Shown piece by piece: positions 2,765 to 62,549 of a DNA stretch of 64,000 bases (position 1 is the stretch's first letter; each line of letters begins with the position of its first letter). The position numbers and the translations under genes are program-made. The DNA is from Bacteroidota bacterium (lineage in GTDB: Bacteria; Bacteroidota; Bacteroidia; AKYH767-A; 2013-40CM-41-45), in assembly GCA_043787975.1 (NCBI GenBank), contig JAYVUK010000016.1, positions 351 to 64,350 on the forward strand. The letters run 5' to 3'. The notes beneath the pieces are model-generated. The model was not told the DNA's origin. It did not search any database and saw only the letters and a list, made by a program, of their open reading frames with translations.

Positions 2765-3250
2765 GTTTTTTTTGATTTAAAGAAGTTTATACATGTTCAG
2801 TCATTATTAACTGATTGTTGCGTTAATAAAAATTCTTATCCGACATTAAATCTTATATCCAACTGCACAAATTCGTTCTGCAATCACTGAAAAATTTTAC
2901 TCTGCTCAATAATCTCCTTACAGGCGGGGAGGTGGCTGAAGTACGCAGTTGATTAAGAACAAGCCCTGAAAAATATCGCTCTTCTTTTCAGCCGGAGAAT
3001 TAATTGAGTACCGCAAGTGTAAAAGAAAACTCTCCTCTTGTCAAGCGAATAACAAACTTTAATTACGAATAGGTATCGGTTCTACGAGAAAACACAGCAA
3101 GTTGAAATCACTACAACATGGAAAAATTATGAAACCTGACAGGAGAATTCCTACCTGTCAGGAGGTGAGCTCCCTAAAGTGTTACCTGTTTGGCCAATCA
3201 ACTATAACCATTGAAACATTTCTTTACTTTTACTATCAAATCTGAGCTGC

Positions 3251-19421: not shown

Positions 19422-20039
19422 TTATGAAAGATTGGCAGAAATGAGTCGGATGAATTCTGCTCTCGTCTTTTCATTTTCAAACTCGCCTGTGAAAGCCGAA
19501 GTCGTTGCAACAGAATTCTGTTTTTGAATACCACGCATCAGCATGCACAAATGTTTTGCTTCAATTACGACAGCTACGCCAAGAGGTTTCAAAGTGTCCT
19601 GGATACAGTCGCGGATTTCAGTCGTCAGCCTCTCCTGGACCTGCAGCCGTCTTGCAAATGCATCCACGACGCGTGGAATTTTACTTAACCCGACGATACA
19701 TCCGTTTGGAATATAAGCCACATGCGCTTTCCCGAAAAAAGGAAGAAGATGATGCTCACACAACGAATAAATCTCGATGTCTTTTACAATTACCATCTGC
19801 CTGTAATCTTCTCGGAACATAGCTGATTTCAAAATATCAGCCGGATTAAGATCATAGCCATGCGTAAGAAACTGGATGGCTTTGGCAGCGCGTTCAGGCG
19901 TTCGTTTTAATCCTTCCCGGTGACCATCTTCACCTATGTTATGGAGTATTCCTGAATAATTTTCTGAAATCTTTTTTAGCAACTTCGGGTTATACTGATC
20001 AATCTTACTATAACCATCCATTTCGTTTTCTTCCTGCAT
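19422..20039 (-). CDS. folE: GTP cyclohydrolase I
   Basis: Conserved FolE core ([15 protein letters not shown]...[48 protein letters not shown]). Confidence 0.9.
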
Positions 20040-20056
20040 AGCTTTTTCTTTTTAAG

Positions 20057-20147
20057 CTGCGAATTACGAATCAATACGAATGTACGAATCGCAGACTTTA
20101 AATAATATTCTACTCAGTTCAATTCGTAAATTAGTATTCATTCGTAC
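20057..20147. repeat. Intergenic repeat element: four direct TACGAAT heptamers bracketed by CTGCGA/TCGCAG, followed by two inverted ATTCGTA copies
   Basis: CTGCGAATTACGAATCAATACGAATGTACGAATCGCAG ... AATTCGTAAAT ... CATTCGTAC between folE and queD. The same TACGAAT array recurs at 24817-24847. Confidence 0.7.
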
Positions 20148-20564
20148 TTAGTATCCCCCGAAGTATTCCACAAAGTTCTTTTCCGTTTCCTGGATTTTCA
20201 CACAATGCAATTTACATCCAAGTGCATTGATGGGAGTTTCAACCTGGTTCCATATTTCAATCGCAAGAACTTCTGTAGAAGGAAGTTTATCCTTCATAAA
20301 ATCAACATCGAGGTTCAGGTTTTTATGATCCACTTTACTGATCACTTTTGAATGCAGAATTTTTCCTACGTCAGACAGGTTGGCAACAAAACCGGTCTCC
20401 GGATTTATTTCACCTTTCACGGTAACAGTAAGTTCATAATTATGTCCGTGCCAATTTGGATTGGCACACTTCCCAAAGACTTCTGAGTTCTTTTCATCCG
20501 TCCATTCTTTACGACTAAGTTTATGAGCAGCGCTGAACGTTTCTTTACGTGTGATGTAAATCAT
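20148..20564 (-). CDS. queD: 6-carboxy-5,6,7,8-tetrahydropterin synthase / 6-pyruvoyl-tetrahydropterin synthase family
   Basis: C-x5-HGH zinc motif (CANPNWHGHNYEL) and ETFSAAHKL. Start moved to the internal Met (MIYITRKETF), which gives ~138 aa. Adjacent to folE. Confidence 0.8.
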   Translation of the reverse strand: MIYITRKETFSAAHKLSRKEWTDEKNSEVFGKCANPNWHGHNYELTVTVKGEINPETGFVANLSDVGKILHSKVISKVDHKNLNLDVDFMKDKLPSTEVLAIEIWNQVETPINALGCKLHCVKIQETEKNFVEYFGGY

Positions 20565-20700
20565 TTTTTTGAGTATGGCACAAAGATAATCGTAAATGTT
20601 TATCGGGTATTTGATAACCTTCCAAATGTTACTCACCGCTGTATATTTTTTTTACTTACTTTTCGGTTTTCGTCAACAATAATCTAATTTCGCAGGCACA

Positions 20701-21681
20701 ATGAGTCGTGTATTAATAACCGGTGCGGCCGGATTTCTAGGATCACACCTGAGTGACCGCTTTATTAAAGAAGGATTCCATGTCATCGGCATGGATAATC
20801 TCATTACGGGCTCTGTAAAAAACATCGAACATCTTTATAAGTTGAAGGAGTTTGAATTTTATCACCACGATGTTTCAAAGTTTGTTCATGTGCCGGGCGA
20901 GCTCGATTACATTCTTCATTTTGCATCCCCTGCAAGCCCGATTGATTATTTAAAAATTCCAATCCAGACATTGAAGGTAGGTTCGCTTGGAACTCACAAC
21001 CTGCTTGGCTTAGCCAAGTCAAAGAAGGCCAGAATACTTGTTGCCTCTACCTCTGAAGTATATGGCGATCCGCTCGTGCATCCGCAGAACGAAGATTACT
21101 GGGGCAATGTGAATCCCGTAGGTCCGCGTGGTGTGTATGACGAAGCGAAACGTTTCCAGGAAGCGATCACCATGGCGTATCATACGTATCATCATCTTGA
21201 AACACGCATCGCACGTATCTTCAATACATACGGTCCACGCATGAGGTTGAATGATGGTCGGGTGCTTCCGGCATTCATCGGTCAGGCCTTGCGCGGAGAA
21301 GATTTAACTGTATTTGGTGATGGAAGCCAGACCCGTTCATTTTGCTATGTGGATGATTTGGTGGAAGGAATTTATCGTTTGCTGATGAGCGACTATCCGC
21401 ATCCTGTTAACATCGGAAATCCGGATGAGATAACAATCAAAGATTTTGCTGAAGAAATAATTCGCCTGACCGGAACGCAACAAAAAGTAATCTACAAATC
21501 GTTACCTACGGATGATCCGAAACAACGGCAACCTGATATTACCCGTGCAAAAGCTATTCTTGACTGGCAACCAAAAATAAACCGTGCTGAAGGTTTAAAA
21601 ATCACCTATCAATATTTCAAAAATCTTCCGGCGGACGAATTGTATAATACGGCTCACCGGTCATTCAAAGAAAAAGTATAA
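20701..21681 (+). CDS. UDP-glucuronate decarboxylase (UDP-xylose synthase), NAD-dependent SDR
   Basis: [34 protein letters not shown]...[19 protein letters not shown]. Hallmark UXS motifs. Confidence 0.85.
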
Positions 21682-21686
21682 CAAAT

Positions 21687-21741
21687 GTTTACGGTTTACA
21701 AGTTTACGGTTTACGTAAACCGTAAACCGTAAACCGTAAAC
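21687..21741. repeat. Intergenic palindromic repeat: GTTTAC(G/A) x4 followed by GTAAAC(C/G) x4, with a perfect 26-bp palindrome at its centre
   Basis: GTTTACGGTTTACAAGTTTACGGTTTAC|GTAAACCGTAAACCGTAAACGGTAAAC. Centre GTTTACGGTTTACGTAAACCGTAAAC is self-complementary. Confidence 0.75.
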
Positions 21742-21755
21742 GGTAAACAAAGATA

Positions 21756-22343
21756 ATGTCAGAACAAAACTCAACATACTTCGCCCATCCGACCGCTGTG
21801 ATTGATGATGGTTGTATCCTTGGAAAAGGAACGAAGATCTGGCACTTCTCTCACCTCATGACCGGTTGCGTGATCGGTGAACATTGTAACCTTGGACAAA
21901 ACGTAGTGGTGTCTTCGGGAGTCGTGTTAGGAAATAATGTGAAAGTTCAGAACAATGTTTCTATTTACACCGGAGTTACCTGTGATGATGATGTATTTCT
22001 CGGACCTTCTGTGGTGTTCACGAATGTGATTAATCCTAGAAGTGCTGTCAGCCGGAAAAATCAGTACGCCAAAACACACGTCGGAAAAGGTGCTTCAGTT
22101 GGCGCCAATGCAACCATTGTGTGTGGACATAACATTGGTGAGTTTGCATTCATCGGTGCAGGAGCAGTGGTTACAAAAGACATTCCTGCTTATGCACTTG
22201 TCATCGGAAACCCTGCCCGTCACGCAGGATGGATGAGTGAATTCGGACATCCTTTGAAATTTGACTCAACCGGAATTGCTGTTTGCATAGAAAGTAAACA
22301 GGAATATAAACTTGAAGGAAATAAAGTCAAAAGAACAAAATAG
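21756..22343 (+). CDS. Hexapeptide-repeat N-acetyltransferase, WbpD/WlbB-like (UDP-2-acetamido-3-amino-2,3-dideoxy-glucuronate N-acetyltransferase family)
   Basis: Left-handed beta-helix repeats. HPTAVIDDG...KIWHFSHL...[14 protein letters not shown]...[49 protein letters not shown] is characteristic of WbpD-type enzymes. Confidence 0.7.
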
Positions 22344-22349
22344 TATTTT

Positions 22350-22406
22350 CGGTTTCCGGTTTACTGTTAACGTAAACTGTAAACTGTAAACACGAAACTG
22401 TAAACA
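22350..22406. repeat. Intergenic repeat: GTTTAC hairpin followed by GTAAACT direct repeats (five GTAAAC/GAAAC copies)
   Basis: CGGTTTACTGTTAACGTAAACTGTAAACTGTAAACACGAAACTGTAAAC. Same hexamer family as 21687-21741 and 26997-27065. Confidence 0.7.
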
Positions 22407-22410
22407 GAAA

Positions 22411-23451
22411 ATGTTAGACGAAAAATCAAAAATAAAATTTGCAATCGTTGGAAGCGGACACATTGGAAAGCGCCATGCAGAAATGATCCGGAGAAATCCC
22501 GAATCTGAATTGGTGGCCATGTCTGATATTAAAACGAAATCCGAACTCGGGTTGAGTGATCTTGAAGTCCCTTTTCTCACTTCCATGGACGAGCTGTTGA
22601 AATCGAACATTGATTTTGATGTCGTCAGTATTTGCACTCCGAATGGTTTGCATGCCGAACAATGTCTCAAAGCACTTGATAACAAAAAACACGTTGTCAT
22701 TGAAAAACCAATGGCACTCACCGTTGCCGATTGTGAAAAAATTATCTTCAAAGCATTACAGGTTTCACGACAGGTTTTTTGCGTGATGCAGAACCGATAT
22801 TCCCCTCCGTCAATCTGGATGAAGGATGTTGTGGATAGAAACCTGTTGGGAAAAATCTTTCTCGTTCAGTTGAATTGTTACTGGAACAGGGATGAGCGCT
22901 ATTATACCGGAAAAAACTGGAAAGGAAATGCTGACTTAGACGGAGGAACGTTGTTCACGCAATTCTCTCACTTCATTGACATCATGTATTGGCTCTTTGG
23001 CGATATCAATGGCATACAAGGTAAGTTTGCTGACTTCAGCCATCAACAAACAACAGCATTCGAAGATTCCGGGCTCGTCACCTTTAATTTTGTGAATGGA
23101 GGAATGGGAAGTCTTAATTATTCAACTTCTGTGTGGGATAAAAATCTTGAAAGTAGTATCACCGTCATTGGAGAAAACGGCAGTATAAAAATTGGCGGAC
23201 AGTACATGAACGAAGTTGAACATTGTCACATTAAAAACTATACGATGCCTGAACTTGCTCCCGGCAATCCTGCAAATGATTATGGTGTGTACAAAGGCTC
23301 TGCGGCGAATCATCATTACATTTTTGAAAATGTCATTGACACCCTGAAAGGCAGAACCATTGCAACAACGAATGCTCTTGAAGGATTGAAAGTGGTTGAT
23401 ATCATCGAGCGGATTTACGCGCTGCGTAAATTAAAAAAACTTCAGAAGTAA
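22411..23451 (+). CDS. Gfo/Idh/MocA-family oxidoreductase, WbpB-like (UDP-GlcNAcA 3-dehydrogenase family)
   Basis: N-terminal Rossmann KFAIVGSGHIGKRHAEMI and overall Gfo/Idh/MocA architecture. It is next to the WbpD-like gene. Confidence 0.7.
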   Translation: MLDEKSKIKFAIVGSGHIGKRHAEMIRRNPESELVAMSDIKTKSELGLSDLEVPFLTSMDELLKSNIDFDVVSICTPNGLHAEQCLKALDNKKHVVIEKPMALTVADCEKIIFKALQVSRQVFCVMQNRYSPPSIWMKDVVDRNLLGKIFLVQLNCYWNRDERYYTGKNWKGNADLDGGTLFTQFSHFIDIMYWLFGDINGIQGKFADFSHQQTTAFEDSGLVTFNFVNGGMGSLNYSTSVWDKNLESSITVIGENGSIKIGGQYMNEVEHCHIKNYTMPELAPGNPANDYGVYKGSAANHHYIFENVIDTLKGRTIATTNALEGLKVVDIIERIYALRKLKKLQK

Positions 23452-23524
23452 ATTAGCTGATTTGCAGATTAGCTAATTAGCTAATTATCACATCGACCCA
23501 TTATCAAATTATCAAATCAAATTT
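23452..23524. repeat. Intergenic element with self-complementary ATTAGCTAATTAGCTAAT and direct TTATCAAA repeats
   Basis: AATTAGCTGATTTGCAGATTAGCTAATTAGCTAATTATCA...ATTATCAAATTATCAAATCAAATTT immediately upstream of the dehydrogenase gene. Confidence 0.5.
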
Positions 23525-24814
23525 ATGTACCAGGATTTAAAAGAAAAGAAAAGAAAATTAGCCGTGCTCGGTTTAGGATATGTCGGTTTACCGATTGCTC
23601 TTGAGTTTGCAAAAAAAATCAGCGTCATCGGTTTTGACATCAGCGAGGAGCGGATCGGGAAAATGAAAAATGGAATTGATCCAAGCGGAGAACTTGATTC
23701 AGATGATTTCAAAAATTGCGACATTGAATTCACAGCCGACCAGGCAAAATTAAAAGATGCGTCTTTTTTTATTGTCACAGTTCCGACGCCGATTGACGAA
23801 CACAACCTGCCGGATCTTCGTCCTCTCTTGAGTGCTACCAAATACATTGGGAAAGCGCTGAAGAAAGGCGACTACGTGGTGTATGAATCCACTGTTTATC
23901 CCGGTTGTACAGAAGAAGATTGCCTTCCGATTCTCGAAGAACTTTCAGGACTGAAATGCAAACAGGATTTTAAACTTGGATTTTCACCGGAACGAATCAA
24001 TCCCGGTGACAAGGAACACACCATTTCAAAAATTCTTAAGGTAGTTTCAGGATGCGATGATGAAGCGCTTGACAACATTGCAAAAACGTATGAGATCATT
24101 GTGAATGCCGGAGTATTCAAAGCTGCTTCCATTAAAGTTGCAGAAGCAGCAAAGATCATTGAGAATACACAGCGCGATGTGAACATTGCTTTGATGAATG
24201 AGCTTTCTATCATCTTCAATAAAATGGGCATCAATACGTATGATGTACTGAAGGCTGCAGGCACCAAATGGAATTTCATTAATTTTTTCCCGGGTCTTGT
24301 GGGCGGTCATTGCATCGGCGTAGATCCTTATTATCTTACTTACAAAGCACAGGAAGTCGGGTACCACGCGCAGGTCATCAACAGCGGACGATATGTGAAT
24401 GACAGCATGGGATTTTATGTCGCCAAACAAACGGTGAAAAAAATTATTGCAACAGGTAAAGATGTTTCGAAATCAAAAGTGCTGGTGATGGGTGCAACAT
24501 TCAAAGAAAATGTGGAAGACATTCGCAATTCAAAAGTTGCCGATGTCGTGAAAGAATTGATTTCATACGGTGTACAAGTAGATGTGACCGATCCGAAAGC
24601 AGATTCAAAACACATGAAACATGAATATGGTTTTGACCTCGTGGAAAAAATCGGAACTGATTACGATGCCGTCATTGTCGCGGTGAATCATACCGAATAT
24701 ATCAACCTGGATGAAAAATATTTTCAATCCATCACCGGGAAAGATGCGATCATCGTTGACCTGAAAGGAATTTACAAAGACAGAATAGAAAACCTTACTT
24801 ATTGGAGTTTGTAA
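23525..24814 (+). CDS. UDP-N-acetyl-D-glucosamine/mannosamine 6-dehydrogenase (nucleotide-sugar dehydrogenase, WbpA/TviB/WecC family)
   Basis: KLAVLGLGYVGLPIALEFAKK, catalytic region GGHCIGVDPYYL, three-domain UDP-glucose/GDP-mannose dehydrogenase layout. Confidence 0.85.
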   Translation: MYQDLKEKKRKLAVLGLGYVGLPIALEFAKKISVIGFDISEERIGKMKNGIDPSGELDSDDFKNCDIEFTADQAKLKDASFFIVTVPTPIDEHNLPDLRPLLSATKYIGKALKKGDYVVYESTVYPGCTEEDCLPILEELSGLKCKQDFKLGFSPERINPGDKEHTISKILKVVSGCDDEALDNIAKTYEIIVNAGVFKAASIKVAEAAKIIENTQRDVNIALMNELSIIFNKMGINTYDVLKAAGTKWNFINFFPGLVGGHCIGVDPYYLTYKAQEVGYHAQVINSGRYVNDSMGFYVAKQTVKKIIATGKDVSKSKVLVMGATFKENVEDIRNSKVADVVKELISYGVQVDVTDPKADSKHMKHEYGFDLVEKIGTDYDAVIVAVNHTEYINLDEKYFQSITGKDAIIVDLKGIYKDRIENLTYWSL

Positions 24815-24816
24815 GC

Positions 24817-24847
24817 TACGAATACGAATCAATACGAATTTACGAAT
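24817..24847. repeat. Intergenic TACGAAT x4 repeat array
   Basis: CTACGAATACGAATCAATACGAATTTACGAATAGCG. Near-identical to the array at 20057-20094. Confidence 0.7.
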
Positions 24848-24855
24848 AGCGTTTC

Positions 24856-25887
24856 ATGAAAAATATTTTAGTTACGGGTGGTACGGGGTACATTGGTTCG
24901 CATACGGTTGTCGAGTTGCTGAATTCAGGTTATCATGTTTTAATCATTGACAACCTGAGTAATTCAAGAATCGAAGTGGTGGAAAGCATCTATAAAATCA
25001 CCGGCAAGCGCCTTTCTTTTTTTGAAATTGATTTGTGTGACAGCGTTGCTGTAAAGAATTTTTTTGATGAAAACAGCGTTGACGCAACCATCCACTTTGC
25101 AGCGTTCAAAGCAGTTGGCGAATCCGTAGAACATCCGTTAAAATACTACCGCAACAATCTTCTTTCATTGATCAACCTGTTGCAAAATTATTCCGAAAAA
25201 AAACTTGACAATTTTGTTTTTTCTTCATCCTGTTCAGTGTACGGCCAGGCTGCAAAACTTCCCGTTGATGAAAGCACACCATTTCAAAAAGCAGAATCTC
25301 CTTACGGGCATACAAAACAAATTAGTGAGGAAATACTTGCCGGTACTGTTCGCGCAAACAATTTCAACACGATCGCATTGCGATACTTCAACCCGGGAGG
25401 TGCTCATGAAAGCGCATTGATCGGTGAGTACCCGCTTCATGCTCCGAATAACCTCGTTCCTGTCATTACACAAACAGCAATTGGCTTACGCAACTCTACG
25501 ACTGTTTTCGGAAACGATTATTCAACTCCTGACGGAACCTGTATCCGCGATTACATTCATGTCGTGGATATTGCCAAAGCCCACGTAGTGGCAATTGAAC
25601 GGTTGATGGACAAAAAAAATAAAAACCAATTCGAGGTGTTTAATCTCGGAACGGGAAAAGGGAATTCTGTGCTGGAAGCAATTCACGCATTTGAAAAAGT
25701 AGCCGGGATGAAATTGAATTACACCATCGGCAAACGAAGACCGGGTGATGTGGAAAAAGTATGGGCTGATACAACGCTTGCAAACAACGAGTTCGGATGG
25801 AAAGCCAAACTTTCATTGGAAGACATTATGCACTCAGCCTGGATGTGGGAAAAGAAAATGAATGAAAAATTGAAAATTGAAAATTGA
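24856..25887 (+). CDS. galE: UDP-glucose 4-epimerase
   Basis: ILVTGGTGYIGSH, YxxxK (PYGHTKQISEE), full-length GalE-like SDR. Confidence 0.85.
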   Translation: MKNILVTGGTGYIGSHTVVELLNSGYHVLIIDNLSNSRIEVVESIYKITGKRLSFFEIDLCDSVAVKNFFDENSVDATIHFAAFKAVGESVEHPLKYYRNNLLSLINLLQNYSEKKLDNFVFSSSCSVYGQAAKLPVDESTPFQKAESPYGHTKQISEEILAGTVRANNFNTIALRYFNPGGAHESALIGEYPLHAPNNLVPVITQTAIGLRNSTTVFGNDYSTPDGTCIRDYIHVVDIAKAHVVAIERLMDKKNKNQFEVFNLGTGKGNSVLEAIHAFEKVAGMKLNYTIGKRRPGDVEKVWADTTLANNEFGWKAKLSLEDIMHSAWMWEKKMNEKLKIEN

Positions 25888-25899
25888 AAATTGAAAATT
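25864..25899. repeat. Heptanucleotide tandem repeat (TGAAAAT/GAAAATT) x5 spanning the galE stop codon
   Basis: GAAAAATTGAAAATTGAAAATTGAAAATTGAAAATT. It encodes the galE C-terminus KLKIEN and contains the TGA stop. Confidence 0.8.
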
Positions 25900-25912
25900 A
25901 TTTTTTCACGCA

Positions 25913-26992
25913 ATGATTTTTAAAAAACATATATTATTAACCGGCGGTGCAGGTTTCATCGGGTCACATGTAGTACGGTTGTTTGTCAACAAGTATCTTC
26001 ACTATAAAATTGTGAACCTTGACAACCTCACATACGCTGGCAATCTTGAAAACCTGAAAGACATTGAGCACAAGGAAAACTACGAGTTTATAAAAGGTGA
26101 CGTCGTCGACAGTACCTTTATTCAACATCTTTTCTCCGAAAAAAAATTTGATGCTGTCATCCATCTTGCAGCCGAATCGCATGTTGATCGGAGCATTGCC
26201 AACCCAATGGACTTTATCATGACAAATGTTGTCGGAACGGTCAATCTTTTAAACGCAGCGAAGAATAATTGGCAACATCCAAATCCTGAATCTGAAAGTT
26301 CAAATCTTTTTTATCATATCAGTACCGATGAAGTATACGGTTCACTTGAAATACATTCAGAAAAAAAATTTACAGAAGACACTCCCTACGATCCTCACAG
26401 CCCGTACTCGGCTTCGAAAGCAAGCTCCGATCATTTTGTCCGTGCATATTATGACACCTACAAATTCCCTGTTGTAATTTCCAATTGCTCCAACAACTAC
26501 GGATCACATCATTTTCCCGAAAAATTAATTCCGCTTGCCATTCATAATATTAAAAACAACAAACCCATTCCTGTTTATGGACAAGGTGAAAACGTTCGTG
26601 ATTGGTTGTTTGTGGAAGACCATGCAAGAGCGATTGATGTGATATTCCACCAGGCAAAAGCCGGAGAAACATACAACATCGGCGGAAACAACGAATGGAA
26701 GAACATTGACCTAATTCATTTACTCTGTGAAATCATGGATCGCAAACTGAATCGCTCAACAGGTTCTTCAGCAAAACTGATTACATTCGTGAAAGACAGG
26801 GCAGGACATGACCTGCGTTATGCCATTGACTCTTCAAAACTTCAGCGGGAACTTGGATGGAAACCTTCCCTGAAATTGGAAGAAGGACTTGAAAAAACTG
26901 TTGACTGGTATTTATCCAACGAAGAATGGCTAAACCATGTCACTTCAGGTAATTATAAAAAGTATTATGAGCAACAATATTCACACAGATAA
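25913..26992 (+). CDS. rfbB: dTDP-glucose 4,6-dehydratase
   Basis: ILLTGGAGFIGSH, HLAAESHVDRSI, YSASKASSDHFVRAY. Canonical RfbB motifs. Confidence 0.9.
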   Translation: MIFKKHILLTGGAGFIGSHVVRLFVNKYLHYKIVNLDNLTYAGNLENLKDIEHKENYEFIKGDVVDSTFIQHLFSEKKFDAVIHLAAESHVDRSIANPMDFIMTNVVGTVNLLNAAKNNWQHPNPESESSNLFYHISTDEVYGSLEIHSEKKFTEDTPYDPHSPYSASKASSDHFVRAYYDTYKFPVVISNCSNNYGSHHFPEKLIPLAIHNIKNNKPIPVYGQGENVRDWLFVEDHARAIDVIFHQAKAGETYNIGGNNEWKNIDLIHLLCEIMDRKLNRSTGSSAKLITFVKDRAGHDLRYAIDSSKLQRELGWKPSLKLEEGLEKTVDWYLSNEEWLNHVTSGNYKKYYEQQYSHR

Positions 26993-26996
26993 GGTA

Positions 26997-27065
26997 TACG
27001 GTTTACAGTTTACAGTTTACCATCTTTGACAACACTTGTAAACCGTAAACAATAAACCGTAAACT
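26997..27065. repeat. Intergenic inverted-repeat element: GTTTACA x3 ... ~18-nt loop ... GTAAAC x3
   Basis: ACGGTTTACAGTTTACAGTTTACCATCTTTGACAACACTTGTAAACCGTAAACAATAAACCGTAAAC. Confidence 0.7.
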
Positions 27066-27068
27066 GAT

Positions 27069-28064
27069 TTGATGTACGAAAAATCTTTTCATAGCGAATC
27101 ATTGAATGACAAAACTTTTCTTGTCACAGGTGGAGCCGGTTTTATCGGATCCAACCTGGTTGAATACTTATTGAAATACGGAGCTGCAAAAGTTCGTGTA
27201 CTCGACAACTTGCTTACTAGCAAAATAGAAAACATAAAACCGTTTTTATCTCATCCGAATTTTGAATTCATAGAAGGAGATATTCGCGATCTTGAATCAT
27301 GCAGACAGGCATGCGATAAAATTCAGTTTGTCTCGCACCAAGCTGCACTTGGATCGGTGCCGCGTTCGGTGAACGACCCGATTACGTCTCATGAAATCAA
27401 TTCGACGGGTTTTTTAAACATGCTGGTTGCTGCACGTTATGAAAAGGTGAAGAGAATCGTGTATGCAAGTTCTTCTTCTGTGTATGGCGATCATCCGTTG
27501 CTGCCGAAGAAGGAAGATGAAACGGGAAATTTACTCTCACCATATGCTGTCACAAAAGAAACAAACGAACTGTATGCCGCCGTGTTTGCTTCAACCTACA
27601 AAATGCAGATTACAGGTTTACGGTATTTCAATATATTCGGTCCGAAGCAAAGCCCGGATGGACCTTATGCTGCGGTAATTCCATTGTTTATTCAATCCGT
27701 CCTGCAAAACAAATCACCCTTCATTGATGGTGATGGAGGCCAAACACGCGATTTTACATTTGTAGAAAATGCTGTTCAGGCCAACATGAAAGCCATGCTT
27801 TGCAAGGATGACAAGGCGATGAATACGGTATACAATGTGGCTGTCGGTGAGCGCATTTCCATCCGTGAACTTTTCAACTTGATTGCCGAACTCGGTAAAG
27901 TGAAATTAAATCCGGTTCATCGTGAAACACGGGCAGGCGATATCCGCGATTCACTTGCTGATATTTCAAAGTCAAAAAAATTGCTTGGATACGAACCGAC
28001 AACTTTTATCAAAGAAGGTTTGCAGATTACACTCGATTGGTTCAGGCAAAACATGCCATCTTAA
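27069..28064 (+). CDS. NAD-dependent nucleotide-sugar 4-epimerase, WbpP/TviC-like (UDP-GlcNAc / UDP-GlcNAcA C4 epimerase family)
   Basis: FLVTGGAGFIGSNL, YASSSSVYGD, YAVTKETNELY. Extended SDR of the CapD/WbpP type. Confidence 0.75.
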   Translation: MMYEKSFHSESLNDKTFLVTGGAGFIGSNLVEYLLKYGAAKVRVLDNLLTSKIENIKPFLSHPNFEFIEGDIRDLESCRQACDKIQFVSHQAALGSVPRSVNDPITSHEINSTGFLNMLVAARYEKVKRIVYASSSSVYGDHPLLPKKEDETGNLLSPYAVTKETNELYAAVFASTYKMQITGLRYFNIFGPKQSPDGPYAAVIPLFIQSVLQNKSPFIDGDGGQTRDFTFVENAVQANMKAMLCKDDKAMNTVYNVAVGERISIRELFNLIAELGKVKLNPVHRETRAGDIRDSLADISKSKKLLGYEPTTFIKEGLQITLDWFRQNMPS

Positions 28065-28073
28065 TTTTCACGA

Positions 28074-28829
28074 ATGAGTTTTTTAAAAAACCTTTTTTCC
28101 GGGAAATCGAAAGAACCACCATTCCCTTCAATCACAGATTATTCCGGTGTAGTTACCGATATTCATTCTCACCTGATTCCAAACATTGATGACGGAGTAA
28201 AGTCGGATGAAGAGTGCGCTGAAATGCTTCGGGCCTTTGTAAGTCTTGGCTATAAGAAGGTAATCACAACGCCACACATCATGCATGATCATTACCGAAA
28301 CACGCCCGAAATAATTCTTGAAGGACTGGAAAAAATAAAAGCTGTTGCTGCGAAAGAAAATATCCCCATAACGATTGATGCTGCTGCGGAGTATTATATT
28401 GATGAAGGCTTTATGCAAAAATTATCGTCCGGAAAAATTCTTACAATCAACGGAAAATATTTGCTGGTGGAAATTTCATACATGAATCCTCCCGACAATT
28501 TACCCCAGGCTTTTTTTGAAATCGGTCTTGCAGGTTACACACCTTTACTTGCTCATCCTGAGCGCTACCCTTTTTGGTATCCGAAGTTTGATGAATACCG
28601 TAGATTAAAAGACCAGGGAATATTATTCCAGGTGAACATTGGTTCCATTGCCGGATATTACGGTCCGGGAGCCAAGAAAATTGCCGAAAAATTGATCGAT
28701 GAAAATTTAGTTGACTTCATCGGAAGTGATCTCCACGGTGATCGACACCTCCAGGCAATGAAGATTGCGCTCAACGATAAATATTTGTGGAAATTAGTCG
28801 GAAGAGGACTAAAAAACTCTACCCTCTGA
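28074..28829 (+). CDS. PHP-family protein-tyrosine phosphatase, CpsB/YwqE type (capsule biosynthesis)
   Basis: DIHSHLIPNIDDG metal-binding motif at the N-terminus and C-terminal HPERY, DLHG motifs. Confidence 0.8.
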   Translation: MSFLKNLFSGKSKEPPFPSITDYSGVVTDIHSHLIPNIDDGVKSDEECAEMLRAFVSLGYKKVITTPHIMHDHYRNTPEIILEGLEKIKAVAAKENIPITIDAAAEYYIDEGFMQKLSSGKILTINGKYLLVEISYMNPPDNLPQAFFEIGLAGYTPLLAHPERYPFWYPKFDEYRRLKDQGILFQVNIGSIAGYYGPGAKKIAEKLIDENLVDFIGSDLHGDRHLQAMKIALNDKYLWKLVGRGLKNSTL

Positions 28830-34290: not shown

Positions 34291-37200
34291 TTAGAATGTA
34301 TCTAGATCGATTGGTCGTAAAACACCAAACCACTTGATCGTCTTTTCACCAATTCCGGGAGCATTAATGTGAATGATATACACACCGCTGGCTATCGGAA
34401 CCCCTGCCGTATTTTTAAGATTCCATTCAAGCGCTGTTTCAAGATTCAACTCAGGATAAATTGCTCCTGCCGTATTATCTGTACTTACGTCACGCTTCAA
34501 CGTCCTCACAAGTATTCCACTTGGTGTATAGATCGTCACAACACACTTTGCCGGCAGATTAATAATCTTAATGCGGTTATCCAACTGATTCTGTTCATAA
34601 GAAGAGAATGCGTAATAAGGATTCGGTACCACGTTAACCGTATCCAACGCTTTCTTCGCTGTTTCAAGATCACCGGTTAAGGCAACGAGATCATCGGTGT
34701 TGAACTGGTATTTAGGGAAGTTATTATTCGTAGGAGGTACGTCTGTCTGGTATGCTTCATAAGGTTTTGCCATGCGAATACGAATGGTCGCCGTAGTGGA
34801 TAATAATGTTTCTCCCCTGTTCAGCATCGGGTAGCCAACCCACATGCATGATGCCCATGGTCTCTTATAATTTAATAAGCCGCTCGAACCACCATAATTT
34901 GAAGTCGTTAGCACTCTCTTAAGTCTTGAATAGAGGAACTGGCAACCGTCATACATTGGAAATGTATCATTATGAGCAAACACATATACAATGTGTTTAC
35001 CTCCAAAAACAACATTGCCTGCTTCATCAAAATAAGTTGAAGTTGGATTCCATTTCATGTCAGCACCATTGTCCGAAGCTAAATGACTATCCTCACCAAA
35101 AGCGATGTTCAAACGTTCACCAGTTTCCAGGTTGACGGCATAACCAGGAAAGTAACTAAAACCAGTACCTGTATCAGCAACTAAATCGTTTCCACTTAGC
35201 TTTAAAGATGTACTTCTTCTTGGTGTGCCTTTCAAAGCATTTCCAACTGTAGCGGCTGAATTATCTCCTTGTTCAATCACCATACACTTACTCCAATAGC
35301 GTGTATCAGGCGTAAACACAATATTTACACTCGCCTGATCTTTAAACTGGTTTAGCGCATGAGCTTGTCCGTTTGAATTCATATCTGATGTCGGAGGATT
35401 AGCGTGCTTAAACTGCGTGCTGTCCCAAGCCGCAAACTTATAAGCAGTCCATGTTCCACCAATCAGTTTTCCCCAAACATTCTTGCCATCCAGTTTAGCA
35501 ATCTGGCTTCCGGTTACTGCATAATATTTATAATCAGCCGGGTCACTTCCACTTGCGATCCAGTTGAATTCACCGTCTCCATCAGCCACTCCACCTAACC
35601 AACGTTGAGCTGAATTTTCAAAATTAATGGTCGCCTCAATAAATTGTGGAATAGCATTTTTACCGACAATCGCTCCCGGGTAGAGAAGTGGAGTATCGAC
35701 AGGTGCAGTTGTTGGAGTATTAGTCAACTGACTCATGTTTATATAAAAACCATAATCAACAGGAAATCCGTCTGCGTTATTAAATTTGACTAACTGATCA
35801 TAAGGACTTCCAATCGCAGCTACCCCATTTAATGTGTCACCTGTTGACAGATTTTTTAAATGCCATTTTGAACCGTAGTTAATAGAGTCTGACCACAATT
35901 GAAAATTACCTCCTTTTACATTTACAGGATCAAATACACGAATGTCCACTGGACCTCTCGCTCTTTGGTAAACAGGGTGCAGTGAACGTCCGGGATGTGT
36001 AGTGTTGAAAAGTAAATCATCAACGGTTGCCGGAGTAAAGTCCAGCGCTAACCTGTCTGATTCTACCACATGACCATTTCCTTGTCCTTCAAGTCTTGTA
36101 ATTTCAGGTCCGTCTCCAAAAGAAGAATTCAAAACCAATCCATTAAATTCCGGTGTAACAATGTGTGGAATGGCAGTATATGTTTTAATTCTTCTTCTTC
36201 CTGATATGTAAGGTTTGCCATCTCCGTCAGGTGTAAGACCATAATTAAATGCATCAATCTCGATGTGATTGTATCCATAGGCAATTACGGTATAGTAATA
36301 TGTCTTATGATTAATTAGCTTATCGTCACCCGTAGCAAATTTGTCTTTCGTGAGTCGGAATACATGGCGCAAACCTACATCCGCTCCGGCAACTTCCTCA
36401 ACTCCGTAATAAGCTGTTGTAACCTGGTCTTTGAAATAATTCACAAGTTGACCTACTCCATTTGATTTATCACATTGGAAAACCAAACTGGCTTTGTCAG
36501 GATTACGAATGTCGTTAATGGTTACAGAACCATCTTTCAATTGGAATACCTGGTATCCTTCAAAATGATAGAATGGATCTGGATCACCTTGGTTCAGGTT
36601 CGGGTCAATTTCAGTATACGTTTCATCCGTACCACCTACCGGGTGATTATTGGTTCCTTCAGGATTTGAAATGGAAAACAAAAGTTCCTGGCTCATTTCG
36701 CGAATGCTGAGATCAGGAGCATCAGGACCATTTGTAATAGCAAAATTATGATCAAATAATTTCTGAGCTTTATCATCAGCCAAAAGAAGCAATGCGATGG
36801 ATCCGGAAGAACCACATGCTGTTCCGGGTCCGCCTGAACCGGCGCGAGCCCATACTGCTCCTGTTGTAATATAATTTACTGCACCAGGCTGTAAGGTAAA
36901 CGGACCGGCGGTTTGTAAAAATCGTCTGTCGTCAGGGTTATTACCGGCAGTTACTTCATCCCAAACCGGTTGGGGAACATGATTCGTACCCCATCCTGTC
37001 GGATCTGAACAACCAGGGAACATAAAATTGGCTGGAATGTTTGTATGTCCAAGATTCGCACCGTGTCCGTCTCCTCCATAAGTAATTACATTTCCATCTT
37101 TCCAGATTCCTCTTAAATAGTTGTAGTAATCGCTGGCACTATTCGGATTACCTATCACTGAAAAATCATTGTTGTAATAAATAAACTTCGACATGATGAT

Positions 37201-38379
37201 AAGTTCGGGCTTCACGGTATCAGGTATCGTATCAATTACTCCGGAAGAATCCGGAAGATATGTACAATCTATGCAACCATCCCTGTCATTATCGACTCCG
37301 TCACCCGGATCCGCTTTTGGTCCCTGGAAAAAGTCATATCCGACTGCAGGCGGATTAAAACCGTAACCCGTGATTCCATCATCGTATGAATCTCCATTGT
37401 AGCAATAGCCAAAACCTCGTTTTACATCACAACCTACATAATCATCCAAATAATTTCCAAGATCCGGATCTACCCAAGCACCAAAGTAGGTGGTATCCAC
37501 TTCGAGTATTGAGCGGTTAATAATTTTATATTTATAAAACGTCATGTTGTTGATTTCATCGTTGGTGGCAAATGCAAATGCCTGCGCCTGGACCTCGAGA
37601 CCGATCGCCTGCCCATTTGTTTCTCCATGAACGTTTCCGACATCGTTAAACACCCACCAGATACTTTGGTCACCTAAAAGGTATTCACCTGTAGCGCTAT
37701 TAGGATCATTATTAGGGAGCTGGAGGTTGTAACCCGGGTAATCACCATTTTCATAGTTGTACTCACCATCAGCATCAGCATCATGAAACGGTGCTAAGAA
37801 ATGAGATTGTCCCAACGATCCATCACCGTTACCCGGCCATTCCTTAATATCAAGAGGAGGATTTGGGTTTGGTGTGTGGTTCGGAAGAAAACCACTTGCA
37901 TATTCTTCTACTTCTTCATGCGTCACTTCCCAATGCCTGTCATATTTAAGACATACGCTGGCTGTCGTCGTTGCAGCGCCACCGGTTGTATCAATAGGGC
38001 CCGGCCAGAAATCAATTCCGCTCTGGCGGTATGTTTGCGCGGCTACTTTTAAATTGTTTCCATTGTCTTTTCCACCAATCCAGAGAGCTCCTGCAAAAAG
38101 CGAATATTTTTTTGAATCCTTTGGAACTTCATACCTAGCGCTACCAACTAAATCCCACCACATATCACCATTGATCCAGATCGGGCAACGGATGTTGTTA
38201 ATATCAAGATCCTTGTGAGATGAAGAATTGGTACAAGTCGCTGCAACCACAGGCAGGGTAGGATCACGATGTATCCCTCCCCCGGACCCGGAACCTGAGC
38301 CTCCACCGATATTTTCTTTTGCAGAAAGAATACCGGCATAACAAAATGAAACAATGATTAAAAGAGCAAATTTTTTCAT
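34291..38379 (-). CDS. Large (1362 aa) secreted protein with N-terminal Gly/Ser linker and a divergent T9SS-type C-terminal domain; possible PorU-like (C25 peptidase family) by gene context
   Basis: Signal peptide plus GGGSGSGSGGG. C-terminus VVTIYTPSGILVRTL...ASGVYIIHINAPGIGEKTIKWFGVLR is CTD-like but carries an extra PIDLDTF. A candidate His/Cys pair (DGHGANLGH ... PGCSDP) is present. Size and position upstream of the PorV-like gene fit porU. Confidence 0.4.
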   Translation of the reverse strand: MKKFALLIIVSFCYAGILSAKENIGGGSGSGSGGGIHRDPTLPVVAATCTNSSSHKDLDINNIRCPIWINGDMWWDLVGSARYEVPKDSKKYSLFAGALWIGGKDNGNNLKVAAQTYRQSGIDFWPGPIDTTGGAATTTASVCLKYDRHWEVTHEEVEEYASGFLPNHTPNPNPPLDIKEWPGNGDGSLGQSHFLAPFHDADADGEYNYENGDYPGYNLQLPNNDPNSATGEYLLGDQSIWWVFNDVGNVHGETNGQAIGLEVQAQAFAFATNDEINNMTFYKYKIINRSILEVDTTYFGAWVDPDLGNYLDDYVGCDVKRGFGYCYNGDSYDDGITGYGFNPPAVGYDFFQGPKADPGDGVDNDRDGCIDCTYLPDSSGVIDTIPDTVKPELIIMSKFIYYNNDFSVIGNPNSASDYYNYLRGIWKDGNVITYGGDGHGANLGHTNIPANFMFPGCSDPTGWGTNHVPQPVWDEVTAGNNPDDRRFLQTAGPFTLQPGAVNYITTGAVWARAGSGGPGTACGSSGSIALLLLADDKAQKLFDHNFAITNGPDAPDLSIREMSQELLFSISNPEGTNNHPVGGTDETYTEIDPNLNQGDPDPFYHFEGYQVFQLKDGSVTINDIRNPDKASLVFQCDKSNGVGQLVNYFKDQVTTAYYGVEEVAGADVGLRHVFRLTKDKFATGDDKLINHKTYYYTVIAYGYNHIEIDAFNYGLTPDGDGKPYISGRRRIKTYTAIPHIVTPEFNGLVLNSSFGDGPEITRLEGQGNGHVVESDRLALDFTPATVDDLLFNTTHPGRSLHPVYQRARGPVDIRVFDPVNVKGGNFQLWSDSINYGSKWHLKNLSTGDTLNGVAAIGSPYDQLVKFNNADGFPVDYGFYINMSQLTNTPTTAPVDTPLLYPGAIVGKNAIPQFIEATINFENSAQRWLGGVADGDGEFNWIASGSDPADYKYYAVTGSQIAKLDGKNVWGKLIGGTWTAYKFAAWDSTQFKHANPPTSDMNSNGQAHALNQFKDQASVNIVFTPDTRYWSKCMVIEQGDNSAATVGNALKGTPRRSTSLKLSGNDLVADTGTGFSYFPGYAVNLETGERLNIAFGEDSHLASDNGADMKWNPTSTYFDEAGNVVFGGKHIVYVFAHNDTFPMYDGCQFLYSRLKRVLTTSNYGGSSGLLNYKRPWASCMWVGYPMLNRGETLLSTTATIRIRMAKPYEAYQTDVPPTNNNFPKYQFNTDDLVALTGDLETAKKALDTVNVVPNPYYAFSSYEQNQLDNRIKIINLPAKCVVTIYTPSGILVRTLKRDVSTDNTAGAIYPELNLETALEWNLKNTAGVPIASGVYIIHINAPGIGEKTIKWFGVLRPIDLDTF

Positions 38380-46199: not shown

Positions 46200-46270
46200 A
46201 ACGACTGTCATGCTGAACTTGCATGAGCATCTCTGAATTCACGAGCCTATTCTGTGCGTGAGCAAAAAAG

Positions 46271-46305
46271 AAAAGTCTTCCTCCAAATTGAGGAAGACTT
46301 TTTCA
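46271..46305. terminator. Bidirectional rho-independent terminator between smc and the convergent thioredoxin-like gene
   Basis: AAGTCTTCCTC-CAAATT-GAGGAAGACTT flanked by A-run and T-run. Confidence 0.65.
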
Positions 46306-46332
46306 ATATGGGATTATGTAAGAAGAATAAAT

Positions 46333-47541: not shown

Positions 47542-47699
47542 AGGCAAATTTATTAGGTCGTAAATGTATATAGTAAGCAATGAAATGCAAATGAATTCAA
47601 AAGAGCCCCTCTCCTTCCGGGAGGGATTGGGTGAGGAATTCTGCAAACGCGGTGCCCGACCCAAAATAAGGACTGAAGTTCCAGGCAACTCCTTAAAAT

Positions 47700-47735
47700 A
47701 AAAAATCCCCCGATAAATCGGGGGACTTTTTATTA
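47700..47735. terminator. Bidirectional terminator hairpin downstream of the 47755-51765 gene
   Basis: AAAAAATCCCCCGATAAATCGGGGGACTTTTTATT. Confidence 0.6.
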
Positions 47736-47754
47736 ATTGTATTTAAGATTGAGC

Positions 47755-51765: not shown

Positions 51766-51836
51766 ATTTGTTGATTTTTAGTTGATAGTTATTTAGTTGA
51801 TAGTTATTTGTTGTTCTTGTTATATTTTAATTCCGT

Positions 51837-62104: not shown

Positions 62105-62549
62105 GTTGGTTGAATTTAAGTTATTGTTTCTATTGTTTGTTTTTATTTTATTTGGCAGGGTATATAAAAGAAAAATGCATCGCCGCACAAAGTGCCACAA
62201 CACATTTTAAAGAAGACAAAGCCGTTAAATAATCAGTGTAAAATTTCACGCAAGTTATACTGTTTAAGTTAAGCTACTTTTTATTTTTATCGGGAATTCC
62301 CTTTTGTTGATACTAAAGAGAATGTAAATATGAATGTAATTTTTAATAAATCCAAATTTTTTTTTCAACAATTCACCCGCATCTGTTAAACACTTTCACA
62401 AAACCTTCATTGAATTGCGGGATAATGATAGAAAGAAACATTTGTCTTCGCAAATTATTTCTATACTTTTTCTTAACATTTTGGTGAACGAGATGATTTC
62501 TATGGTGAACAGAACTTGATTGCATGTTTACCGTTGTTGTTTATGTATA

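Follow-up and report, generated by a model that had tools for sequence, protein, structure and literature searches.

The DNA analysed here, called the window, is a stretch of 64,000 nt from a member of the Bacteroidota (contig JAYVUK010000016.1), and all unlabelled positions refer to it. It contains a run of sugar-nucleotide genes in which most spacers are occupied by tandem copies of a short unit, mostly a heptamer, and in several spacers the array is followed by its own inverted copies. The genes of the run are organized in two units:

20701-28829, plus strand: the host operon, encoding a UXS-like protein, a hexapeptide acetyltransferase, a WbpB-like oxidoreductase, a UDP-sugar dehydrogenase, a GalE-like protein, an RmlB-like protein, an epimerase and a CpsB/CapC phosphatase
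19422-20636, minus strand: a divergent two-gene unit consisting of a PTPS/queD-like gene and folE (GTP cyclohydrolase I), with a repeat hairpin between them

These labels are backed by Pfam matches of the window proteins (the WbpB-like protein belongs to Gfo/Idh/MocA). The order of the operon genes is the same in the relatives L112-L115 and L118 (L-numbers label the compared loci and contigs from other genomes and assemblies). In the divergent unit, folE lies at 19422-20039 and the listed open reading frame (ORF) of the PTPS/queD-like gene at 20148-20636, both on the minus strand; this ORF has a GTG start, and the boundaries of its spacer were set from the ATG at 20570 instead. A promoter-like TATCTTTG motif is present in this unit at 20588 on the minus strand. 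A motif scan showed that TAnnTTTG, the -7 promoter motif of Bacteroidota, is absent on the plus strand from all internal spacers of the operon. Antisense TAnnTTTG-like motifs at 21748-21755 and 23518-23525 (minus strand) abut the start codons of the acetyltransferase and dehydrogenase genes and may be due to chance.

The arrays found in the window are the following, family 1 being built of GTTTACN and family 2 of TACGAAT units:

20057-20146, minus strand: family 2 hairpin, (G/T)ACGAAT units at 20059-20089 and inverted ATTCGTA units at 20122-20146 around a 32-nt centre, occupying the whole spacer from the PTPS/queD-like stop to the folE start
21686-21749, plus strand: family 1 hairpin, four GTTTACN units followed by five NGTAAAC units without a loop, 4 nt past the UXS-like stop and 6 nt short of the acetyltransferase ATG
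22347-22405, plus strand: family 1 hairpin between the acetyltransferase and WbpB-like genes, with a degenerate 5' arm (CGGTTTC CGGTTTAC TGTTAAC) and a 3' arm of GTAAACT units
23452-23486, plus strand: self-complementary hairpin array of ATTAGCTA, period 8, 4.6 copies, directly after the WbpB-like stop
23500-23520, plus strand: unstructured direct array, two copies of ATTATCAA (23500-23517) and one ATCAAAT, a few nt before the UDP-sugar dehydrogenase ATG at 23525
24817-24847, plus strand: family 2 direct array, four TACGAAT units without an inverted partner, ending 8 nt before the GalE-like ATG at 24856
25866-25899, plus strand: unstructured direct array of five GAAAATT units, period 7, 4.9 copies, 100% matches, spanning the GalE-like stop (25885-25887) and ending 13 nt before the RmlB-like ATG at 25913
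26996-27065, plus strand: family 1 hairpin, three GTTTACN units, a 17-nt loop and three to four NGTAAAC units, adjoining the RmlB-like stop and leaving 6 nt to the epimerase ATG at 27072
51777-51813, minus strand: unstructured array of TAGTTGA/TAGTTA units, period 7/15, outside the gene run and 12 nt upstream of a PKD-domain gene (47755-51765, minus strand, 1336 aa) of the type IX secretion system (Por_Secre_tail)

The original prediction, a reading of the letters alone, had described hairpin or tandem repeats in nearly every spacer of this run and had named the genes. All of its elements were found where it had placed them, and its gene labels agree with the Pfam results. The perfect 26-bp palindrome that it reported was located at 21702-21727, inside the 21686-21749 hairpin, and reads GTTTACGGTTTACGTAAACCGTAAAC. 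The array given as TACGAAT x4 at 20057-20094 is present and has its inverted ATTCGTA partner, although three of the four units are exact TACGAAT. Its list, in which every entry is real, lacked the GAAAATT array, the ATTATCAA/ATCAAAT stretch at 23500-23520 and the TAGTTGA-type array at 51777-51813.

Tandem Repeats Finder returned period-7 or period-8 arrays at every site that had been named, with period 7 at 21687-21748, 22363-22405, 25866-25899 and 26997-27064 and period 8 at 23451-23517; the spacing of units in the TACGAAT arrays is irregular (6-10 nt). The elements measure 35-90 nt, and their arms are made of variable numbers of 7-nt units that are uniform inside each array and differ between arrays (G/C, T/A or A/C at the N position). 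In the window the copies consist of the heptamer arms, without other terminal repeats. All arrays of the window are located in spacers, and only the GAAAATT array reaches into the last codons of a gene. The C-terminal residues of the GalE-like protein are encoded by this repeat, in which TGA across the unit junctions provides a stop in every frame.

Counted on either strand, GTTTAC occurs 59 times in the window (35.9 +/- 7.0 expected from shuffles). Three spacers hold 20 of these 59 copies, at 21687-21748 (9), 22359-22405 (5) and 27001-27064 (6), and the other 39 correspond to the background frequency. TACGAAT was counted 25 times against 8.6 +/- 2.6 expected, with nine copies within the spacers at 20065-20146 and 24817-24847. 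Six of the nine spacers of the run (20040-28073), and none of the 16 other short spacers of the window, contained one 6-mer in four or more copies (hypergeometric p about 5e-4, by our own arithmetic); the GAAAATT array over the GalE-like stop comes as a seventh. In homologous loci of other genomes (n = 75) the same was true of 8 of 279 short spacers. Two independent SRA assemblies, L001 and L111, are 100% identical to the window over 20932-24845 and 21825-24845, respectively; one covers two of the repeat spacers and the other three. The arrays are therefore real and not an assembly artefact. Both contigs stop at 24845, inside the TACGAAT array, and such arrays break short-read and metagenome assemblies.

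RNA folding of the coding strand, with z-scores against shuffled controls, gave strong structures for five elements:

20040-20147, minus strand: -28.3 kcal/mol, z -4.06
21682-21755, plus strand: -34.9 kcal/mol, z -7.06
22344-22410, plus strand: -18.7 kcal/mol, z -3.39
23452-23524, plus strand: -13.1 kcal/mol, z -3.73
26993-27068, plus strand: -23.6 kcal/mol, z -5.25

The label of hairpin repeats that had been given to the whole set thus holds for these five. No structure was predicted for the TACGAAT x4 array at 24817 (-3.1 kcal/mol, z +0.32), the GAAAATT x5 array (z +0.96) or the array at 51777, and the ATTATCAA stretch stays single-stranded when its spacer is folded. These four unstructured direct arrays are A/T-rich, with the next start codon 7-13 nt downstream. 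Between the preceding stop codon and the beginning of a hairpin there are 0-4 nt. From the end of the hairpin to the next start the distance is 6 nt in two cases (21749 to 21756 and 27065 to 27072) and about 13 nt (22344), 38 nt (23452) and 25 nt (minus-strand TACGAAT) in the others. The original prediction had stated that a clean T-tract is missing; this was right by reading of the sequence and by a terminator scan, which found no terminator-like site in the spacers, and no T-run follows the hairpins, whose tails are A-rich. Searching Rfam gave nothing in the window at gathering thresholds; below them (E below 1) only chance matches to microRNA precursor hairpins were obtained.

The WbpB-like protein has many homologues, and the operon could be followed in relatives. 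In genomes with 84% identity in this protein (GCA_016702675 and three others) the gene order is kept, with spacers of 8, 21, 1, 10 and 39 nt and no repeats. In L118, another relative at 84%, synteny is conserved downstream and the plain spacers measure 45, 38, 35 and 33 nt. Its spacer between the RmlB-like and epimerase genes contains a degenerate GTTTA...GTAAAC hairpin at the orthologous position, which has decayed without compensation (-14 kcal/mol, z -1.4). In contigs of 92-93% identity, for which lengths alone were compared, the spacers measure 62, 53, 154, 71 and 15 nt against 74, 67, 73, 41 and 25 nt in the window. A metagenome scan for relatives yielded sequences of at most 81% identity. 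Repeat-filled spacers measure 41-79 nt here against 1-39 nt for plain ones in relatives. The compact, repeat-free spacers at orthologous positions imply that the arrays are lineage-specific gains and not machinery of the operon. Judged from these comparisons, the arrays were gained in a narrow lineage and are turning over, and the operon works without them.

The occurrence of the GTTTAC hairpin in other genomes was studied with the pattern GTTTACNGTTTAC-N(0-30)-GTAAACNGTAAAC, scanned in one genome for each of 185,579 species. At least 109 stretches match it, where by our estimate about 0.1 would be expected by chance. Judged by record title, 84 of the 109 matches listed are from Bacteroidota (Chitinophagaceae, Larkinella, Spirosoma, Fibrella, Runella, Flavobacteriales, Prevotella and other Bacteroidales) and the remainder are scattered. 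Among the matches listed, GTTTACN spans Chitinophagia, Cytophagia, Flavobacteriia and Bacteroidia, and the cultured carriers include Larkinella, Spirosoma, Flavobacterium, Myroides and Marinirhabdus. Several metagenome-assembled genomes (MAGs) give 6-10 loci each, with at least nine in CAZCXH01 and at least ten in JANLUX01. No homology to the window outside the repeat was found in the 109 pattern-matched loci.

Gene context was taken from a crude gene call, which placed genes on both sides of 88 copies. All but two of these, which lie inside called ORFs, are intergenic (86 of 88): 63 are between co-directional genes (73% of the intergenic copies), 13 between divergent and 10 between convergent genes, and the spacer left on either side of the hairpin is typically 5-40 nt. 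The 95 flanking proteins matched 178 Pfam families of unrelated housekeeping functions, with at most two matches to any one family; the 25 most frequent of them include no sugar-nucleotide family and no transposase, and a test of the flanking genes for functional enrichment was negative.

Heptamers predominate in the pattern-matched loci, with 114 tandem arrays of period 7 against 3-14 each for periods 5, 6, 8 and 9. In 35 of the 114 the unit is another heptamer, many with an inverted partner array. The sister units of the window recur as well: TACGAAT...ATTCGTA hairpins in L098 (-26.6 kcal/mol) and L196 (-38.4 kcal/mol), TACGAAT arrays in L120, L122 and L061, TAGTTGA x5 with inverted copies in L064 (hairpin array at 2981-3044), GAAAATT in L145, and ATCAAAT-type arrays upstream of dehydrogenase genes in L116 and L118.

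The two arms of the GTTTAC hairpin always stand in one order, GTTTAC first; the opposite order, with GTAAAC first, gave no match in 199 loci. Among clusters that had not been chosen by the search pattern the ratio was 9 to 0, or 7 to 0 when two Logan contigs identical to the window are left out. Viral contigs gave one match against none for the opposite arm order, too few to inform on this point. Within the JANLUX01 and JANLZB01 genomes the loops share a GCTGACGCACG motif in both orientations. Together with the fixed arm order these shared loops suggest common descent within the family. Loops resembling GCTGACGCACG were seen in L028, L060, L092, L096, L098, L099 and L107 (JANLUX01), in L017, L052 and L084 (JANLZB01) and in L067, L070 and L091, and their orientation has no consistent relation to the direction of the flanking genes. 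In Larkinella, orthologous copies differ by two compensatory double changes, from G-C to T-A and from A-T to G-C, which indicates that pairing between the arms is maintained.

In CAZCXH01, a Chitinophagaceae MAG, the hairpin is the centre of a dispersed repeat of about 145 bp with 85-90% identity among copies, which resembles a miniature inverted-repeat transposable element (MITE). Its ends are imperfect inverted repeats of about 21 bp (TTATACTGTGCGCGGGATAAA ... TTTATCCCG..AGTATAA), and separate terminal inverted repeats are confined to this subfamily. Its sites are:

L027: 3219-3359
L048: 3459-3602 and 1685-1737
L083: 6742-6887
L105: 2610-2666

In rumen Bacteroidales the hairpin occupies orthologous sites just beyond the hairpin-plus-T-run terminators of tRNA-Pro(CGG) and 5S rRNA and is followed by the TAnnTTTG promoter-like motif of the next gene. 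These copies are:

L012 (5654-5721), L035, L078 and L087
L023 (3070-3123), L030, L063, L081 and L110

The comparison with other genomes bears on several statements of the original prediction. Its view of a structured intergenic family distinct from ordinary terminators is borne out, since the families are reused across intergenic regions of many Bacteroidota; and of the options that it listed the REP-like element comes closest, GTTTAC and TACGAAT hairpins recurring intergenically in other Bacteroidota. A family dedicated to this sugar-nucleotide operon must be given up in view of the compact repeat-free spacers of the 84% relatives and of the 178 unrelated Pfam families elsewhere. Binding sites for one regulator fit poorly with at least five unrelated heptamers in one locus, and attenuators with the lack of T-tracts and with Bacteroidales hairpins that lie downstream of canonical terminators. 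It had also proposed that presence or absence in relatives would indicate mobility: presence does differ between related genomes, but target-site duplications that would be a sign of mobility were not found.

Taken together, we consider it somewhat better than an even bet (a probability of about 0.55) that the arrays are dispersed, largely palindromic heptanucleotide minisatellites, expanded by slippage and tolerated as passengers, and that they are not regulatory parts of this operon. With the same confidence they are regarded as the Bacteroidota counterpart of the STRR sequences (short tandemly repeated and repetitive) of cyanobacteria and of the period-7 long simple sequence repeats. A short copy of a family (GTTTACN/NGTAAAC, TACGAAT/ATTCGTA or another) would be seeded into a spacer of about 10 nt, sites close to an existing copy apparently being favoured. 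The array would then grow or shrink in 7-nt steps by slipped-strand mispairing, which would homogenize its units; this step is based on the homogeneity of units within arrays and on the differing spacer lengths in relatives. The compensatory changes show that the arms stay complementary, and hairpin-templated correction of the DNA or selection may be the cause; alternatively, only a compact hairpin might be tolerated where stop and start must stay close together.

Given that internal promoters and terminators are missing, the element would be co-transcribed passively in the operon mRNA. The base of the resulting stem-loop (-13 to -35 kcal/mol) would put the upstream stop and the downstream start about 10 nt apart, so that an insertion of 50-80 nt preserves the close spacing of the relatives (1-21 nt). 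A ribosome terminating on the upstream gene would open the outer stem and free the start region, by which translational coupling would be preserved or enforced, and translation of the downstream gene would probably depend on this opening. Bacteroidota largely lack Shine-Dalgarno sequences and are thought to need unstructured leaders. The arrays that do not form hairpins would act as A/T-rich unstructured leaders next to start codons and may be tolerable for that reason in this Shine-Dalgarno-poor phylum. Any stabilization of the upstream mRNA segment would be secondary.

Several observations weigh against tolerated passengers. In a phylum dependent on unstructured leaders, a stem of -35 kcal/mol that ends 6 nt before the start codon should lower initiation, and this cost argues for a compensating benefit. 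The presence of arrays in six of nine spacers of one operon is extreme clustering for a non-functional repeat. The hexamer core and the arm order are kept across four classes of Bacteroidota, and the two sets of orthologous Bacteroidales copies retain their hexamer cores around loops that cannot be aligned; both could reflect a sequence-specific function in addition to concerted evolution. With respect to the mechanism, array counts for the source organism cover the 64-kb window, and dispersal over its whole genome is presumed. No means of seeding or dispersal was found: the copies have neither target-site duplications nor conserved flanks, and no transposase was encountered in the window or in the 25 commonest Pfam families of the flanking proteins. 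No copy-number differences were seen among near-identical pairs (L001 and L111 against the window, L118 against L119, L126 against L127), and slippage was therefore not directly observed.

The strongest competing explanation, which we regard as possible though clearly less probable than passengers, is that the hairpins are selected intercistronic RNA stem-loops that tune the output of the sugar-nucleotide enzymes by protection against 3' exonucleases, processing or translational coupling, like the repetitive extragenic palindromic (REP) sequences and bacterial interspersed mosaic elements (BIMEs) of Escherichia coli. Folds far beyond those of the shuffled controls, the snug fit between stop and start codons and the 73% of intergenic copies that lie between co-directional genes are all in its favour, as are the compensatory changes in the Larkinella orthologues and the arms that Bacteroidales orthologues keep while their loops diverge; the same idea has been put forward for the STRR hairpins of cyanobacteria (PMC2670836). 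A test for selection on the mRNA strand, made on 42 copies in tight co-directional spacers, gave no sign of it: the sense fold was more stable than the antisense fold in 18 and less stable in 24, and the sense folds contained 54 G-U pairs against 76 in the antisense folds, leaving the sense strand no edge in stability or G-U usage. Moreover, close relatives run the operon without hairpins, the L118 copy has decayed, three arrays of the locus are structureless, 23 of the 86 intergenic copies lie between divergent or convergent genes, and the Bacteroidales copies, lying past the tRNA-Pro and 5S rRNA terminators, would be expected to see little transcription.

A doubtful alternative is that the arrays are non-autonomous mobile elements of the REP or MITE kind, copied by a trans-acting enzyme such as an HUH/Y1 transposase that recognizes the heptamer arms. 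Such copying would account for the many copies within single genomes (at least 9 in CAZCXH01 and 10 in JANLUX01), the loop motifs that recur within one genome in either orientation, the constant order of the arms, the variable presence in related genomes and the terminal inverted repeats of the CAZCXH01 element. The marks that a transposon would leave were not encountered: 13% of the copies have direct repeats of 4 nt or more at their boundaries, compared with 8 +/- 4% when the pairings are shuffled, no flank consensus was found among the copies, and neither the 64-kb window nor the 25 Pfam families most often matched by the 95 flanking proteins include a transposase or a gene related to the REP-associated tyrosine transposases (RAYTs). 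In addition, the window copies consist of heptamer arms alone, viral contigs are nearly devoid of the pattern (the one match mentioned above), and homogenization within arrays combined with differences between them points to local amplification, not to copy-and-paste of a fixed element.

A farther-reaching idea, held by us with equal reserve, is that (GTTTACR)n-loop-(YGTAAAC)n and its sister families could be a conserved sequence-specific device of Bacteroidota, or a new class of self-propagating hairpin without transposon-like ends. In the former version the hairpin could be bound by a dedicated protein that couples translation of adjacent cistrons. If this is true, the fixed arm order, the conservation of the core in four classes and the conserved arms with diverged loops would reflect function or a novel way of copying and not drift.

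It seems improbable that the arrays serve as binding sites for a single DNA- or RNA-binding protein, whether one that regulates the polysaccharide locus or a translation factor (S1 or a cold-shock protein), as has been proposed for the TAACTGA repeats. The hexamer core conserved across distant Bacteroidota would suit a binding site, the 14-nt centre GGTTTACGTAAACC is operator-like, and the direct arrays 7-13 nt before start codons recall the TAACTGA repeats of Beggiatoaceae (PMC4679880). A single protein is difficult to reconcile with the five or more unrelated units of this one locus (GTTTACN, TACGAAT, GAAAATT, ATTAGCTA and ATTATCAA), with the absence of arrays from the orthologous operons and with the lack of a shared function among the flanking genes elsewhere. 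Outside arrays GTTTAC hexamers occur at background frequency, and the known SOS-repressor motifs of Bacteroidetes are different (PMC8565304).

A perfect 27-nt palindrome, GTTTACAGTTTAC(T/A)GTAAACTGTAAAC, or near variants of it were observed in several phyla, among them Patescibacteria, often with a start codon 1-10 nt downstream. This palindrome may represent an operator-like site and form a class apart from the long arrays. The idea of an SOS operator was rejected for it, the published Bacteroidetes motifs being GGA-N5-TCC and CTAA-N5-TTAG (PMC8565304). Its sites are:

L004 at 2517, L006 at 1593, L009 at 4766, L022 at 3207, L032 at 1029 and L033 at 6625
L065 at 6880 and 7889, L074 at 4514, L088 at 3391, L094 at 3308 and L106 at 5974

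That the arrays are contingency (phase-variation) repeats, tuning expression of a surface-polysaccharide pathway by gain and loss of units, is very unlikely: the locus does make precursors of surface polysaccharides, spacer lengths differ in the 93% relatives and one array overlaps the 3' end of a coding region, but intergenic 7-nt units cannot shift reading frames, the arrays sit between cistrons, the same families adjoin housekeeping genes elsewhere, and the arrays are identical in three independent assemblies (a small sample) and in the pairs L118/L119 and L126/L127. Intrinsic terminators or attenuators that would split the run into separate transcription units can be dismissed with similar assurance, for although stable stem-loops directly follow stop codons, they have neither a T-tract nor a terminator-scan match, coding-strand TAnnTTTG is absent downstream of the hairpins, convergent gene pairs are not enriched (10 of 86) and the Bacteroidales hairpins sit beside canonical hairpin-plus-T-run terminators without replacing them.

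Heptamer tandem repeats have been known in cyanobacteria since 1990 and later in scattered other bacteria. To our knowledge nobody has explained their function and spread, so the kind of repeat described here is already known but unexplained. What is new is that the arms keep a fixed order, that the family extends broadly across Bacteroidota and that one operon can be compared cleanly with and without the arrays. In the summary of Mrazek (2007) given in PMC4679880, heptamers are the commonest class of long simple sequence repeats and polymerase slippage is proposed for them, and the bacterial excess of heptameric repeats has been noted as observed but little studied (PMC4692102). Repeats of 7 bp that form hairpins lie between hupS and hupL in cyanobacteria, where a role in transcript stability or translational coupling was proposed (PMC2670836). 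Intergenic TAACTGA repeats were described in Beggiatoaceae, cyanobacteria and five Bacteroidetes (MacGregor 2015, PMC4679880), and other heptamer repeats in spacers of Gramella and Aequorivita (PMC4679880). A search for the GTTTAC array sequences found no paper containing them in the library covered.

Compared with STRR sequences, the window contains at least three head-to-tail copies of a 7-nt unit, the location is intergenic here and in 86 of 88 copies elsewhere, and the units recur at many sites and are shared among genera (GTTTACN at three and TACGAAT at two sites in the window). Both systems have tandem intergenic 7-nt units, several heptamer families per genome, heptamers common across genera and some hairpins inside operons. 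They differ in the phylum, Bacteroidota, and in the units, GTTTACN, TACGAAT, GAAAATT and others; here an array in direct orientation is typically succeeded by its inverted counterpart, the arms standing in a fixed order, and the spacers filled by the hairpins have a length of only about 10 nt in relatives. Heptamer dominance, intergenic position and sporadic phylogenetic spread are shared with the long simple sequence repeats of period 5-11 and with TAACTGA repeats, and direct arrays a few nt upstream of start codons with the latter. TAACTGA arrays, however, are almost all direct (one indirect set among 170) and were read as single-stranded binding sites, whereas most elements here are self-complementary hairpins; GTTTACN is not among the units described for them (PMC4679880).

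The resemblance to the REP and BIME elements of Enterobacteriaceae and Pseudomonas lies in dispersed, intergenic, imperfect palindromes that are often in operons and lineage-specific. A REP is a single palindrome of 20-40 nt with a conserved tetranucleotide (GTAG/CTAC-type) and a cognate RAYT transposase of the IS200/IS605 Y1 type, and REP and BIME sequences are transcribed into stem-loops able to stabilize upstream mRNA. The elements studied here are instead arrays of 7-nt units, 35-90 nt long and without a conserved flank, and therefore not single palindromes; no RAYT-like gene accompanies them in the window or among the 25 most frequent flanking Pfam families, and 13 of the 86 copies lie between divergent genes. 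With MITEs they have in common that they are small, non-coding, multi-copy and hairpin-forming, and the 145-bp repeat of CAZCXH01 has terminal inverted repeats, but the window copies lack terminal repeats beyond the arms as well as target-site duplications and do not qualify as MITEs. Very small dispersed repeats of Nostoc, reportedly described by Elhai and colleagues in 2008, were likened to them on the same four properties. From Rho-independent terminators they are set apart by A/T-rich repeat stems, the missing U-tract, the position inside an operon and the relatives without them.

The locus is a compact natural experiment, one conserved operon with plain spacers in relatives and repeat-filled spacers here, and cultured carriers (Larkinella, Spirosoma luteum and Flavobacterium subsaxonicum) make deletion and transcript mapping practical. 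The arrays could be mis-called as terminators or small RNAs. If they are only tolerated passengers, they belong to the ordinary natural history of genomes.

Elsewhere in the window, strong folds not made of repeats were noted at 46200-46332 (-37.1 kcal/mol) and 47689-47754 (-24.8 kcal/mol); the former separates two convergent genes, SMC and a 451-aa ORF, and probably acts as a bidirectional terminator. An ORF of 1362 aa (34291-38379) has no Pfam match, and one of 3313 aa (52262-62203, minus strand) has weak matches only (Gly_rich_2, GEVED, G8 and Ig_7). The array at 51777-51813 is preceded by a small ORF (about 52170-51838, minus strand) with dockerin-like D-x-N-G-D motifs. Inside the gene of the 1336-aa surface protein (PKD_6/Dicty_CTDC) a tandem repeat with a period of 156 nt (49931-50808, 5.6 copies, 87% matches) corresponds to a repeated protein domain and is unrelated to the heptamers.

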